A stretch of DNA of 64,000 bases from Dehalococcoidia bacterium (GTDB lineage: Bacteria > Chloroflexota > Dehalococcoidia > Lucifugimonadales > G963668185), in NCBI GenBank assembly GCA_963668185.1, contig OY764162.1:678915-742914 (forward strand). Reading direction: 5' to 3'. A program made the position numbers and the translations under genes. How positions within the stretch are numbered: position 1 is the first letter of the stretch; each line of letters begins with the position of its first letter. Below the pieces are notes generated by a model that was not told where the DNA came from, did no database searches, and saw only the letters and a list, made by a program, of their open reading frames with translations. Positions 30,150 to 52,992 of this stretch are shown here, piece by piece.

Positions 30150-30517
30150 CGCCAGGCGCTCAGCGTCCCGGATAAAGTTTATGGTCTCTCGAATTAAGAG
30201 TTCCGTCTCGTCAACCGGGTCGCACGGCCGTAGTAGAAACACTCGCCGTGTAGCGTCGCCTGAAGGTCCAGGTATCGTCGCCGCAAGGCGCGCAACTTGG
30301 GATCGGTCGGCACGAGGCGACGCAGACCCGCGCTGGTCGCGGCGGAGGTCCGGGGTTCATCGCCGGTTCGGGCTAGTATGAGGGCGTCGGTGGCGCGCTT
30401 AGCCGCGCACCAAGCCTTCTCAGCGGCGTCGCGAATGTCCCCCGCCGACAGCCTTTGCAGCGCGGCGGCGTGCATTAAGTGAGCGTCGGCGAAGGCATCG
30501 GTCATAGTTGTGGCCAT
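30141..30517 (-). pseudogene. PaREP1/HEPN-like protein, apparently frameshifted near 30225
   Basis: GDIRDAAEKAWCA...LHGECFYYG; a helical-looking C-terminus CDPVDETELLIRETINFIRDAERLALV continues in another frame. Confidence 0.55.
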
Positions 30518-30568
30518 GTGTTTTCTCCAAAGAGCCAGAGAAAGTCTAACCAACGACGCCGCTATGCG

Positions 30569-32167
30569 CTAGCCCGCACTCTGCCCTGTGGCAGCCTCTA
30601 CCGGATACCGCGCCGCCCAGCCGTCGAAACCGCCGGATAGCGCCGCCGCGCTGTGTCCCATCGCCTGTAGCTGCTGCGCCGCACGGACGCCCGTCGCGTC
30701 GCCCGGTCAGGCGCAGTAGGTAACGATCAGCGCCTCTCCGCGCGGCCTGCCCGCCGCCCACTCGGAGACCTCGTCGGGCAGTACTCTCACGGATCCCGGT
30801 ACCTGCAACCCGGACGCCGCGTAAGCAGACCGTGAGCGCACGTCCAGGATCACCGACGGCGTGACGCCGCCCGCCATCTCGCGCAGCTCCTCCGGCGTTA
30901 CGGTCCGCACTTCGCTGTCGTCCCGCGCGAACAGCCCGTCCGCCGTTCCTTCCCGCTCCTCAGCTAGCGTTGCTCGGTCAGCCTTTCGTCCGTACCATGC
31001 GCCCAGCGGCGTCGTGCTCGCCCCGTGGATAGCCACCGACGCAATAACGACCACACCTACCGTCGCCAGCAACTCCTCGGCCCCCGGTACGTGCGCCTGC
31101 ACGGCAAGCAGCGCCAGCAGCAGCGAGTTCAGGCCGCGAGGCCCGAACCACGCGATCAGCCCCTTCGCCTCAAGGCTCAGCCTGGTCCGCGCCAGCAGAG
31201 CTCCCAGCACCGGCGGACGAAGTCCGAAGATCACGATGGCGGCCAGCGCCGCCGCCAGCGGGATGTTGACCGTTTCGAGAATGCCGGACAGCACCGCGCC
31301 GAACAGCACGAACGCCAGCAGCATCGCCATCTCGGACGTCACCTCGCCGTACTCCATGAAGCAGTCGCAAAGCCGCTGGTTCAGCAGCACCACGGCCAGC
31401 CCTGCGGCGAAGGCGGCCAGGAATCCGTCGCCACCCGCCGCCGTGGCCGCGCCGAAGGCCGCCAGCACGAGGCCGATGCCGTAGAACGACTGATGCTCAC
31501 GGCGGATGTTCATTCGAGCGTCCACCCGGTTCATCAGCCACGATCCGACGCCCCCGATGGCAAACCCTATCGCCGGGCCCAGCAGCAGAAGTTGAGCAAG
31601 GAATCCGCCCCACGCTGCCATGTCCCTGCCCTGCGCCTGGGCGACCGCAATCAGCACCAGGATCACGGGAAGCACGATGATGTCGTTCGTTCCCGCCTCT
31701 ATCTTGAGCACCTGCCGCACCGAGCGCGGGACTCTTTTGTCGCGCACAAGCTCTCGGAGCACCACCGGGTCGGTCGAGGCGAGTATCGCCCCGCCTATGA
31801 ACGCGACCAGCCAACCGAATCCCAGCATGAGCGCCAACGGCAGCGCGCCAAGCGAAATGATGAGCGCCGTGCCCGGCCCCAGGATCAGCGCGGGTATCAG
31901 CCACCGCCGGCCCAACTCCTCGACCTGCAGGTTCAGCGCGTCCAGGAAGAGGACAAGCGAGAGCGTCAGGGCCGCGACCACTTCGAGGATAGGATCGTGC
32001 GGCCCCATCTCCAGCAATCCGAACCCACTCTCGCCCAGCAGCAATCCCAGGCCCAGGAACAGTATCGGGAATGACAGTGGAGACCGCTCCACCGCGCCCG
32101 ACACCAGCGCGGTGACCACCATGATGACCGCGATCAGGCCGAACGCCGGAAGAAACTCAGGTAACAT
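30569..32167 (-). CDS. Cation:proton antiporter (CPA1/NhaP-like) fused to a C-terminal rhodanese domain; candidate selenoprotein, UGA at 30709-30707
   Basis: GAILASTDPV, LKIEAGTND, WFGPRGLNS, then ILDVRS...VPGSVRV...IVTYCA-(TGA)-PGDATGVRAAQQLQAMGHSAAALSGGFDGWAARYPVE...TAG 30569. The rhodanese fold is complete only after read-through. Confidence 0.85.
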
Positions 32168-32223: not shown

Positions 32224-32964
32224 CTAGCCCTGGCTGTCTAACCTGTCTCCGCGCAGGCGGCCCAACTCCGCCTGAAGCTCACGGATCTGAGCCTCAGCGG
32301 CTATGCGCATCGCGCGCTCTTCGCCGAGGACGTTCAGCCACTCCCCGGTGGCGCTGTCGCGCAGGCGGAACCTTCCGAACCCATCCTCCAAAAGGTGGTA
32401 CACGTCCACCCCCAGGACCTCGCTCCGTGACCACGTGCTGCCGTCCGTCTCCTCGCGCAATTCCAGCCGCTCATACTCTCCATCCACCAGCCGCTCACCC
32501 ACCAGCGGTTCGCCGTAATGCTCTCCGTTTCGGTCAAGGCGCCAGTACTCCGTAACCCCGATGCGCGCGTATATCTCTCGCTTATCACCCAGATCTCTTG
32601 CCGCCGTACTCGCCGACGCCACCTCCATCACAAAGGCAGGCGGCTTGCCCCATTCGTCTATCCTGTAGCTCCGCCGCTCTCGCCTGATGAACTCGGTGTC
32701 CACTCCGAACACGACGTAGCAGTCCGGCGATATCACCGAGCCGGGCGTGTCCGAGTCGTACACGATTACCGCTGTGGGACCGGACACGAGCACCGTGGGA
32801 TCGTCCGCGTAGCGTGCCCGGATGATCGGGTTGACGTGGTCTATCGTGTCTTCCTGCTGCATCCCGTCCTCTATCGGTTCGGCCACGTCGCTTATCAACT
32901 CGTACCAGGGACGGTCAGCGACGTCGGACGGCAGGGGCATCTTCGCGCCTGCTGGTGTCGTCAT
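32224..32964 (-). CDS. Uma2 family (PD-(D/E)XK-like) endonuclease
   Basis: ISPDCYVVFGV, PAFVMEVASAST, DLGDKREIYARIGVTEYW. Confidence 0.88.
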   Translation of the reverse strand: MTTPAGAKMPLPSDVADRPWYELISDVAEPIEDGMQQEDTIDHVNPIIRARYADDPTVLVSGPTAVIVYDSDTPGSVISPDCYVVFGVDTEFIRRERRSYRIDEWGKPPAFVMEVASASTAARDLGDKREIYARIGVTEYWRLDRNGEHYGEPLVGERLVDGEYERLELREETDGSTWSRSEVLGVDVYHLLEDGFGRFRLRDSATGEWLNVLGEERAMRIAAEAQIRELQAELGRLRGDRLDSQG

Positions 32965-49751: not shown

Positions 49752-52700
49752 CTACCCCACCGGCCACCCGCCGTGCGCCGTGATTGCCTCGTCGATGCGC
49801 GCCATCAGACGCGGCGTCTCCGCCAGTGCCGCGCACACCCGCTGGTAGTGCGCTATGTCGTCGTAAGTTAGGGTGCGCCGCCTGCGGTCTTTGAGCCACT
49901 TCTCTGCCGAACGGTAGCCCCCGATCGTGAACCCCCACGTCTCCGGCGACACCCCCTCGAAGTACTGGCCCCCGTTGATGTACACCCGCCCGCCATTCGC
50001 TTCCGTCGGAGGGGCGTACCGCACCTTGTCCACGCGGTTGTCCCCCGCCTCCGGGAACGACGGCCTCTCCTCGCCCTCCGCCTCCATCAGGTGCAGCGAC
50101 GCCAGCCGCCCGCCAATCCCCACGAGCGCCGCGAACAGTTCGCGACTGCCCGTCAACGGAACCCTCGGAAAGTCCGACTTCAGAAAGTCCGCGTACCGTC
50201 GCCGGTACTCCGGGCTGTGCAGCACCGCGTAGATGTAATGGAAGACGTCTTCCGGCCCGAAAGTAGTCTGAAGGTCGCCGGGCCCGTCCGCCGTGAAGCT
50301 GAGGCCGAGCTTGGATCCCAGAGCCTGCACGAACCCATCGCTGAGGTTTGGATTGCGTTCGGATACAAATTGGCTCTGGCTTGGCGCAGAGTGTATGTAC
50401 AGTGGAAACAGGCAATTCCCGCCGCGTCTGAACAGGTTGAAGTCTGAGGTAGCCTTAGCAATGAAGCATACGTCCCACGACTCCGATCCAATCACTTGAC
50501 CGGCCCGGCCTATGCACAGTCCCACGTTCGGCCCGGCCAGCATGTGGCGCATCACTCCCGGACGCGGCATACAAATGAATCCGCGCGTCTGACCGGTGTA
50601 ATACGTCCACCGCCTGTCGAACGGCCTGTACAGGATTGGTTTTACGTACTCGTCGGCTTCCGGGTGTGAGTTGATGTCTCCTTGTGCCCAGCTAACTTTC
50701 CAGTCTCTGGCATCCCTTCCCAGATTGAACCGCTCTCGCGCTTTCTCTTCCGAAAGCTCCGCGAACTCGGCGGCCACCTGCTTCATCTGTTCCCGTGACC
50801 ACTGCACCGCGAGCTTGTCCCTGGCCGTCACGATTCCAACGGAGTTGTTGGGAAACACCTCTGGGATCGCCCATCCCGCCTCATACTCTTCGGCCAGCGC
50901 CTCGTCCCTCGGAACGAACAGGTAGAGTGGCTCCTTGGGCGAAAGCTCGACCCATGGGGTTGAATCTACGTCGTTCGACACGAGCCAGTTGTACTTGCCG
51001 CCATTCGGCTCTCCTTCCCTTTCTCCCCATATGCTCGCATAGAACATATGTGGGAGGGGGGGGGGGTGAACCAGACCGCCAGTCTGCCCGCTTGACGAAC
51101 AGCCCGATCGCCACGCCCTGCTGGATGTCGAACACGTTCTCATCCGCGCCCCCTTCCGGCGTCCGCTCCTTCTTCCTCGCGTTCCCGTGTAGGTCCAGCA
51201 GGTATATCTCGTCGAATGCCTCCATCAGGCTCTGCCGCATCCCACGGAACGTGGGGTTGTCCAGGTAGCTGTGGTTCGTGACGAAGCCCAGCACACCCTC
51301 GCCCGTCTGCTCGATTTTCCACTGCGCGAACCGGATGAACTTCACGTAGTCGTCGTTCAGCCACTTTGGATTGCGCTCCCCCAGCGGCGCCCCATCGACC
51401 TCGAAGTAGTTGGCTGTGCTCTTCTCACCGTCCCTGCCGCGCATCAGGCCCGTTATCCAGTCGCCCGCGTTCGCGGAGTGCCCGGAGTAAGGCGGATTCC
51501 CAAGCACCACCATCACCGGCTTCTCGCGCTTCACTTCGTCGGCGCTTCGGGACTCGCGGGCGATCTCGTGGGCGAACAGCGGCCCCGTGGCCGACTCGTG
51601 CGCTTCTTCGAGCGCGTTCGTAAGGAACACGTTCAGCCGCCGGCCCTCCGGCATCGCGAACCCGGACTCCGGCCCCGCGATCTCCAGCGCAAGCTTCAGG
51701 TGGCATATCGCGTACGGCGCCATCAGCAGCTCGAACCCGAACAACCTCGGCAGAAGGTGTTCTTGTACGTACTCCGGCCATGCGCCCGCCAGCCCCTTCC
51801 CGTGCACCGTCTCCCTGATGTTCGCCGCCACCTCTCTCAGGAAAGTGCCCGTGCCCGTAGCCGGGTCCAGAATCAGCACGCGCGGGGTGGCTGCTTGACC
51901 ATCCGCGGACTCAATGACCTCGGTATCGGCAAGGCCGTCCGTCAGCCCGAACTTGCCTCGCAGTATCCGATCTACACTGCGCACGATGTAAGAAACGACC
52001 GGTTCCGGTGTGTAATAGACTCCTCGCATCTCCCGAAGTTCATAGTCGTAAGCTGTCAAGAAATCCTCGTAGAAGTGGACTACCGGGTCCCGGCCGACCG
52101 TCGAGCTGCCAAAGTTCTCGAGTATCGCCTCCATGTCGGCGCGGTCGAGCAGCCGCGCGAGGTCGTCCACGACCCACGCGGTGCGCGGGTCGATCCCCGG
52201 CCCGGCGATCTGCCCGAACACCGCCTGCAAAAACGGCGTCGTCTCCGCAAACACCGCCGACTGCCGCGTGAACGGCCCACTGCCGGAGAGGTCATGGCGG
52301 CACCGCGCCGCGAACAGTCCGTACGCCGCCGTCTGCGCCTGCAGGTCCGCGAACTCCAGGTAGTTGAGATCGCCGATCAGCACCTCGCGGTAAGCGTCCA
52401 GCAAATCGCCGAGCGGCCCGGAGAAGCCCTCGCTGGCGAAGATGCTTACCACGCCGTTACGCAGCAGCCTCGCCTTGCCCGCCATCCGCCTTGCAAGATC
52501 GCGGGAGTTGTCGACCACCGGCGCGTCGGCATCGAAGAACGCGGCCAGCAGGTCCGCGACTTCACCCGCGCCCGCGCCGTCGTACCTCAAGCCGCCCTGC
52601 CCGTCCGAGCGTCCCGCCCGCGCCGCGTCGCCGCGCAACTCGCCGTCCACGTACCAGCGAAACTCCACGTAGTCGGTCAGCACCAGGTTCGGCAGCCCAT

Positions 52701-52992
52701 CGCGGTAGCGCCTGAGTTGCTCGCTGCCCTCGACGCTGTCCAGGTCCGCGCCGACGTCCTTGCACTCGACGTGCCCTATCGGCACGCCGTCGCGCTCCAC
52801 GATGAAGTCCGGCGCGCCGCACGCCACCTGCGAAGGCTCGTTCAGCGCCGTCACCCCGTCGCCGCCCAGCGCCTCCAGCAGCGTCTTGAGAAACGGGCGG
52901 TAGCTGTGCTCCGTCGCCTGCCCGGTAGCCCGCGTCCCCGACACCTCCCTCACGTACGCCCGCAGCGCCGCGCTCTGTCCCTGATTGGTCAA
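49752..52992 (-). pseudogene. Type IIG/ISP-like single-chain restriction-modification enzyme, frameshifted in a C11 tract
   Basis: N-part (50881-52992 frame): GAPDF...VECK nuclease, GVYYTP, LDPATGTG, GNPPY. C-part (49752-51143 frame): GIVTARD, YRPFD, YIYAVLHSP, DFPRVP, IGGY target-recognition region. Removing one C joins them into about 1079 aa. Confidence 0.85.
51056..51066. repeat. G11/C11 homopolymer at the R-M frameshift
   Basis: Read directly from the sequence: ...TGGGA GGGGGGGGGGG TGAA... Confidence 0.9.

Follow-up and report, generated by a model that had tools for sequence, protein, structure and literature searches.

A gene on the minus strand of a 64,000-nucleotide stretch of a Dehalococcoidia genome (contig OY764162.1 of assembly GCA_963668185.1, positions 678,915 to 742,914; hereafter the window) codes for a cation/proton antiporter followed by a rhodanese domain, which is interrupted by an in-frame TGA, the proposed codon for selenocysteine (Sec, U). 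Under translation table 11, the open reading frame (ORF) runs from the ATG at 32167 to the TGA at 30709-30707 and gives a product of 486 amino acids ending in ...GEALIVTYCA. When this TGA is read as U, the frame continues for 45 more residues (PGDATGVRAAQQLQAMGHSAAALSGGFDGWAARYPVEAATGQSAG) up to a TAG at 30571-30569, and the whole coding sequence (30569-32167) comprises 532 residues plus the stop, with Sec at position 487. A previous sequence-only reading of this DNA had already noted that the ORF stops inside a rhodanese active-site loop (IVTYCA) and that read-through adds 45 residues ending at the TAG at 30569, both of which are borne out by the ORF list and the translation. The LCDCF motif that it had seen in the transporter part was found at residues 266-270 (codons 31372-31358). 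Its main proposal, a selenoprotein made of a cation/proton antiporter and a Y-C-x-U rhodanese, is supported by codon pairing, selection, the decoding machinery and the lack of any sign of assembly error, and we consider it very probable that the locus encodes a genuine Sec-containing antiporter-rhodanese fusion.

The transporter part, residues 18-390 (30998-32116), matches the Pfam family PF00999 (Na_H_Exchanger) with 134.5 bits and an E-value of 5.5e-39, for a gathering threshold of 26.2. An AlphaFold2 model built from a 75-sequence alignment, from which one locus (L049) was left out, reached a mean confidence (predicted local distance difference test, pLDDT) of 91.2 and a predicted template modelling score (pTM) of 0.89, and comprises about 13 helices. 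Foldseek searches with this model retrieved SOS1, PaNhaP, MjNhaP1, SLC9C1, NHE1 and KefC as top matches, with a probability of 1.00 for PaNhaP, MjNhaP1 and SOS1, and the ASTDP and TND motifs align with those of SOS1. Residues D133, N161, D162, R317 and R344, which we take to be the ion-site residues of CPA1 antiporters, are invariant or nearly so in the family. As these CPA1 hallmarks are kept, cation/proton exchange is the predicted default function. A pair of cysteines, C267-D-C269 (31361-31369), identified in the family alignment, stands at the start of helix 264-299, and the helix order of the model would place it on the cytoplasmic side of the membrane, the same side as the rhodanese domain. 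The one intact Cys form among the loci, L028, has LCDSF instead of LCDCF.

The rhodanese domain lies at residues 424-519 (30611-30898) and matches PF00581 over profile positions 1-101 of 102, with 40.2 bits and an E-value of 5e-10 (threshold 22.2), in agreement with the NCBIfam model NF041203 and with the structural model, where this part has pLDDT values of 88-95. Since the Pfam match spans the TGA, a complete domain requires read-through. In the modelled structure, a strand at 481-484 is followed by C485-A-U487 and then by a helix at 488-502. C485 (codon 30713-30715) is conserved in 118 of 118 sequences and aligns with the YC of BH2092, and a weak match to GlpE (E 0.066) begins at chain residue 65. 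These alignments place C485 at the canonical catalytic position of rhodaneses and U487 (30707-30709) two residues later. The active-site loop is acidic and contains a proline.

The read-through protein was searched against 41 related genomes and 401 genomes sampled across the phylum. Among the 38 loci examined by tblastn, the rhodanese part is present in 27, each from a different genome, and absent in 11. At the column of residue 487, the 27 loci carry TGA in 25 cases, TGT (Cys) in one (L028) and TGG in another (L029). If L049, a TGA locus from a genome flagged as unpublished, is set aside, the count becomes 24 of 26. Within the phylum sample, 17 matches (including this gene) cover both domains, each with exactly one TGA. 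The flanks of the codon are kept even at 40-50% identity, following the pattern Y-C-[TA]-U-x-x-E-A-T-S-A-R-[VA]-A-[RQ]...GG[FY]xAW, and both EATSAR and GG[FY]xxW are conserved phylum-wide downstream of the TGA. Moreover, the frame stays open for 41-57 codons after the column in 27/27 loci, and the ratio of nonsynonymous to synonymous substitution (dN/dS, Nei-Gojobori), calculated in six same-genus pairs for the 36 codons that follow the TGA, lies at 0.155-0.403, compared with 0.087-0.167 for the 30 codons before it, also within the genus. The sequence after the TGA is under purifying selection.

A complementary view comes from the protein databases, where residues 400-532 found 144 proteins, the best 120 of which were counted. 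Among these, 112 end exactly at the Sec codon (YCT 94, YCA 12, YCN 3 and YCS 3; one of them is the product of this gene), giving products of about 485 residues, whereas five continue with Cys at the column, in the form YC[STA]C[PI]D[DE]. The remaining three are a fragment ending in VAY, another ending in CCH and an unrelated protein of 879 amino acids. Where a name is given by the source, it reads 'cation:proton antiporter' or 'NhaP-type antiporter', except for a partial Cys form labelled 'rhodanese-related sulfurtransferase', and none of the best 120 of 144 bears the name 'selenoprotein'. The metagenome-assembled genomes of the named relatives belong to Chloroflexota, Dehalococcoidia, Ktedonobacterales or Herpetosiphonaceae. 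The best 150 representatives at 50% identity include 23 that stop at YCx and seven with a Cys in this position, and two more align poorly downstream of it. Presumed Sec and Cys forms are distributed here as would be anticipated for a selenoprotein family dominated by its Sec form. With 112 of the best 120 relatives recorded as ending at the Sec codon, annotation in this phylum consistently overlooks both the complete domain and the Sec residue, so that a widespread fusion goes annotated as a truncated protein. A search for shorter relatives of the rhodanese module gave a single weak match, P0122, a rhodanese fragment of 91 amino acids with a hydrophobic N-terminus whose sequence likewise stops at IVTYCT. 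This fragment may represent a further CxU-type selenoprotein, possibly an exported one, that was truncated at its UGA.

The genome, a single contig of 2.78 Mb, has the complete machinery for Sec decoding, with profile matches to selA (536 bits, over its cut-off), selB (336 bits, cut-off 242) and selD (380 bits, over its cut-off), together with a tRNA-Sec that scores 63.9 bits (gathering score 47) and is called by ARAGORN as tRNA-SeC with anticodon tca. The selD gene (C1:1184915-1185835, plus strand, locus L018) contains one in-frame TGA of its own, at locus position 1531-1533 (...LADCAG-U-ASKF...), and an 8-bp GC stem with a GUC loop begins 28 nt after that UGA, which suggests that the SelD of this organism is itself a selenoprotein. 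Sec decoding is very common in the phylum, with selA over cut-off in 308 of the 401 sampled genomes, including all 18 of those that have the TGA form, and selA was also found in five of five relatives checked, among them the carriers of the Cys and TGG codons. Because related genomes are not independent, this co-occurrence does not amount to a statistical test and is taken only as consistent with the Sec assignment. Several small-genome families of the same class lack a selA over cut-off in the 401-genome sample.

With regard to the letters themselves, contigs from four public runs (three samples of one study, one of them possibly the source of this genome) show zero differing letters over 30707-30709. 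This agreement, together with the presence of TGA at the same column in 24 other genomes, makes an assembly error unlikely. Cys/UGA pairing at the column, purifying selection beyond it, the Sec machinery and a possible assembly error had been singled out in the sequence-only reading as the points on which its proposal could be checked, and all four came out in its favour, the first one also through the full-length Cys homologues of the databases.

The RNA downstream of the UGA offers a candidate selenocysteine insertion sequence (SECIS), a hairpin at 30676-30690 formed by a 5' arm GCGUC (30690-30686), a loop CGUGC (30685-30681) and a 3' arm GGCGC (30680-30676), which starts 19 nt after the U of the UGA. 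In an alignment of 63 nt around the codon of all 27 loci, RNAalifold predicted one helix (columns 29-33 with 39-43) that independently matches the one obtained by counting pairs. On that helix, 135 of 135 cells are paired, a value reached by none of 500 shuffles and to be compared with 19-64% in slid controls. Two-sided changes occur in three of the five pairs (CG to UA twice, GC to AU once and CG to UA once), in addition to five G-U variants. The consensus is GCGCC-CGUGU-GGCGC, with a 5-nt loop C-G-K-G-Y where G is invariant at positions 2 and 4. The conserved 5-bp hairpin thus has the features of a SECIS, being a stem-loop that follows the UGA closely and has a G in its small apical loop. 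The same nucleotides also code for conserved residues (S/G-A/V-R-A/V-A; S-A-R-V-A here), but the third codon positions of the stem have entropies of 0, 0, 0.24 and 0.24 bits in the 25 TGA sequences, as against 1.59-1.99 bits at the third positions of conserved codons for Ala, Thr, Leu and Gly beyond the stem and 1.4-2.0 bits at four-fold sites elsewhere. Being nearly invariant, the third positions of the stem are insufficiently explained by amino-acid conservation alone, and such a compact element doubling as S-A-R-V-A codons would represent a case of overlapping RNA and protein constraints. Two other hairpins proposed in the sequence-only reading do exist in this sequence; their conservation as SECIS elements, on the other hand, did not hold. 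One of them, GACGC-GACGG-GCGUC, belongs to the local minimum-free-energy fold, and was rejected as a conserved element since just 63.7% of its cells are paired in the 27 sequences, with no covariation and with an equal or higher value in 430 of 500 shuffles. The element that is conserved is found 13 nt farther towards the 3' end, and its 5' arm is the GCGUC that served as 3' arm in the earlier proposal.

Several observations weigh against the Sec assignment or against parts of it. The evidence for selenium in the protein is indirect, and among the runs on record as RNA, none contained the stretch. The hairpin is just 5 bp long; in this genome it includes a G-U pair, has a stability between about -5 and -7 kcal/mol and must compete with a more stable local fold. 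Folding of the 76 nt around and after the UGA gives -32.4 kcal/mol, whereas shuffled sequences average -35.5 (z = +0.98) and equal or exceed the native stability in 167 of 200 cases, so that the stability of the single sequence carries no information here. An Rfam scan of 30500-30800 at a permissive threshold found no SECIS family; its only matches in that interval, mir-1893 and AS-pc02, are at chance level with E above 1. Furthermore, L028 (genome G007), the sole Cys-form locus with DNA, keeps the hairpin with two UA pairs (GUGCU/AGCAC), from which it follows that part of the pairing may stem from the palindromic S-A-R-x-A codon pattern and not from SelB binding. Three of the 27 copies are disrupted: in L029 (genome G022) the TGG codon is accompanied by a 1-nt indel within a run of G, L030 (G032) has TGA and has lost 2 nt from an AG repeat lying between the two domains, and L031 (G011) keeps TGA and lacks approximately residues 210-472. 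These disruptions may reflect decay or assembly errors. All three genomes keep selA, and the intact copies comprise 23 TGA forms and one Cys form. One database representative, P0136 (415 aa; VVVYCATPREATS), has Thr at the Sec column. Thiosulfate sulfurtransferases have a basic active-site loop, and the basic residues are missing from the loop found here. As for the function, no flanking ORF within 1.5 kb is common beyond the genus, and no partner gene was found there; the CxC motif is not exclusive either, as it occurs in 17 of 50 rhodanese-less paralogues.

The scheme that we propose is a single selenoprotein of 532 residues, where an NhaP/CPA1-type monovalent cation:proton antiporter (approximately residues 1-400) would be connected through a conserved linker, LAEERE, to a cytoplasmic rhodanese with the motif Y-C485-A-U487-P. 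At the UGA (30709-30707), SelB with Sec-tRNA(Sec) would be recruited by the small GC-rich hairpin 19 nt downstream, Sec would be inserted, and the 45 further codons up to the TAG would complete the rhodanese fold. Were translation to end at the UGA, only part of the rhodanese domain would be attached to the antiporter. The position of Cys-x-Sec at the N-terminus of a helix would suit a selenenylsulfide or a persulfide-accepting redox centre. Glutathione and its adducts control KefC by way of thiol chemistry, and the cytoplasmic domains of KefC, SOS1 and SLC9C1 provide the analogy for a regulatory role of the rhodanese. In this line, we tentatively suggest that the C485/U487 centre might sense oxidants, sulfane sulfur or electrophiles and regulate Na+(K+)/H+ exchange, possibly via C267-x-C269. 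The suggestion of the sequence-only reading that a CxU centre might gate or load the transporter keeps the same tentative standing. Such a redox or sulfane-sulfur switch ranks first among the functions considered, ahead of a relay for a substrate or metal and, last, of a selenium-dependent switch between two products. If all these elements were joined, which as a whole looks possible but rather doubtful, the protein would be the first selenoprotein among secondary-active CPA antiporters. Its exchange activity would be switched by chalcogen chemistry in response to oxidants, sulfane sulfur or electrophiles, either by a C485-x-U487 selenenylsulfide or by exchange with C267-x-C269 at the cytoplasmic mouth, and, given that the Sec form dominates phylum-wide, selenium supply would set the ratio of regulated to truncated transporter.

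A different function for the same residues would be that C-x-U and the membrane C-x-C act together as a relay for the transported species, either a soft monovalent metal (Cu+, Ag+, Tl+-like) or a chalcogen, the protein being then a specialised transporter and not a Na+/H+ exchanger. This idea draws on the presence of C267 and C269 in 119 of 119 aligned family members and on the frequency of CxC in rhodanese-bearing representatives (19 of 20) versus rhodanese-less paralogues (17 of 50), a comparison confounded by relatedness. It also draws on a weak match to ChrE, the chromate-resistance rhodanese, with 40 bits (below the cut-off of 120), and on the available text of PMC13188914, where predicted transporter selenoproteins of the MerT-like, E1-E2 ATPase, YeeE/YedE and SO_0444 Cu/Zn efflux types are linked to metals or thiosulfate. 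We regard the relay as unlikely, since the canonical CPA1 motifs (TDP, ND and the two Arg), to which we ascribe the ion site, are conserved, the CxC sits at a helix end outside the ion-binding core according to the helix list of the model, and no metal- or sulfur-related neighbour gene is conserved. Less probable still is that the UGA itself works as a selenium-dependent switch, yielding a full-length regulated antiporter when Sec-tRNA is available and a truncated, differently behaving one when it is not. Termination at the UGA would indeed leave the whole transporter domain intact, and the Sec forms outnumber the Cys ones by 112 to 5 (best 120 of 144 proteins), 23 to 7 (best 150 representatives) and 25 to 1 (loci), but the half rhodanese domain may simply be degraded.

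Very little remains for a read-through of the UGA that does not involve Sec, be it by a near-cognate Trp or Cys tRNA or by a reassigned code. The TGG found at the column in one orthologue could speak for it; that copy, however, is also frameshifted. The code is not reassigned, given that 11 of the 27 orthologues end at a genuine TGA stop, and the full Sec machinery, the Cys of homologues at this column and the conserved hairpin with its G-containing loop after the UGA all point to Sec instead. Hardly credible, finally, is an ordinary stop leaving a 486-residue antiporter with a vestigial half rhodanese and 45 codons of untranslated remains: the gene callers of all sources shown do end the protein here, the local RNA fold is unexceptional and no Rfam SECIS matches, but the frame is open for 41-57 codons in 27/27 loci with a dN/dS of 0.16-0.40 after the TGA, the C-terminal rhodanese motifs are conserved phylum-wide at 40-50% identity within a Pfam match that spans the stop, and full-length Cys homologues exist.

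Around the fusion gene, the window contains a Uma2-family putative endonuclease (32224-32964) and a small PaREP1-like protein (30194-30553) as immediate neighbours on the minus strand, as well as RidA, a phosphotriesterase and a DAO oxidoreductase. The Uma2 and PaREP1-like genes are not kept beside the orthologues outside the genus. Many ORFs of the window end in TGA with at least 35 open codons after it, as expected at this G+C. Three of these other read-through candidates were compared with Pfam and dropped. Two of them match no family. In the third, an ORF of 703 amino acids with an N6 DNA methylase domain (50695-52992, minus strand), the N6_Mtase match precedes the TGA, and nothing suggests read-through into the 62 open codons that follow.

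Among known systems, the closest relatives of the transporter part are the NhaP/CPA1 antiporters, with which it shares the PF00999 match, the TDP and ND motifs, and the conserved R317 and R344. The structures of PaNhaP (4cz8, 4cz9 and 4cza) and MjNhaP1 (4czb) gave Foldseek TM-scores of 0.72-0.76 when normalised to the target. These archaeal proteins, in contrast, have neither a rhodanese domain nor Sec, and the CxC at 267-269 is not general in the NhaP/CPA1 group, as SOS1 has no Cys at those positions of the alignment. The equivalog models for K+/H+ antiporters all stayed under their cut-offs, including NF003716 (potassium/proton antiporter), with 133.7 bits for a cut-off of 355. KefC with glutathione (8by2), SOS1 (8jd9, 7y3e and 8iwo) and SLC9C1 (8pd3 and others) combine the same transporter fold with a C-terminal cytoplasmic domain, but the regulatory domain is not a rhodanese in any of them, belonging instead to the KTN/RCK, cyclic-nucleotide-binding or other types, and they contain no Sec.

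The predicted transporter selenoproteins named in the text available of PMC13188914 are the MerT-like proteins, an E1-E2 cation ATPase, YeeE/YedE, the SO_0444 Cu/Zn efflux protein and SaoP. They too are membrane transporters in which Sec is predicted within a Cys-rich motif, although with folds unrelated to that of the present protein. No CPA or antiporter family is listed among the selenoproteins in that same text, and the word 'antiporter' is absent from the available portions of PMC13188914, PMC9312934, PMC13326102 (the BSepDB paper) and PMC1794560. Full-text literature searches, which covered neither supplements nor BSepDB itself, found no paper on an antiporter selenoprotein, and a homology-based listing under a rhodanese heading may already exist in BSepDB or in the supplements.

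The rhodanese part has a described precedent. A rhodanese form with a CxU motif is listed as a selenoprotein in the consulted portions of the reviews PMC9312934 and PMC13188914, the latter giving NF041203 as the model for it. This family (rhodanese_LYCAU, 'rhodanese-related (seleno)protein') is the best rhodanese-specific NCBIfam match of our protein, over profile positions 17-125 of 126, scoring 74.3 bits with the protein itself and 70 bits when the genome was searched, both under the cut-off of 115; a profile search of this genome found no member over that cut-off. Both share the rhodanese fold and a Cys in the catalytic position that is followed, after one intervening residue, by Sec or Cys (Y-C-A/T-U), the motif being IVTYCAU here and YC[TA]U in 25 loci. 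However, NF041203 proteins stand alone and are about 126 residues long, whereas the present module occupies residues 417-525 of a 532-residue fusion with a 13-helix antiporter. The sequence-only reading did not know the architecture as a described selenoprotein family, which stands for the fusion, not found in print, and falls for the CxU rhodanese module, already described in the accessible text under NF041203. What is new is thus the fusion to a CPA1/NhaP antiporter, of which no description was found, the Sec module being a known one. If confirmed, it would add a CPA-type ion exchanger with a Sec redox centre, an architecture absent from the portions consulted of the reviews examined, to the selenoproteins known so far, and would offer a defined case in which the role of CxU rhodanese modules can be examined.

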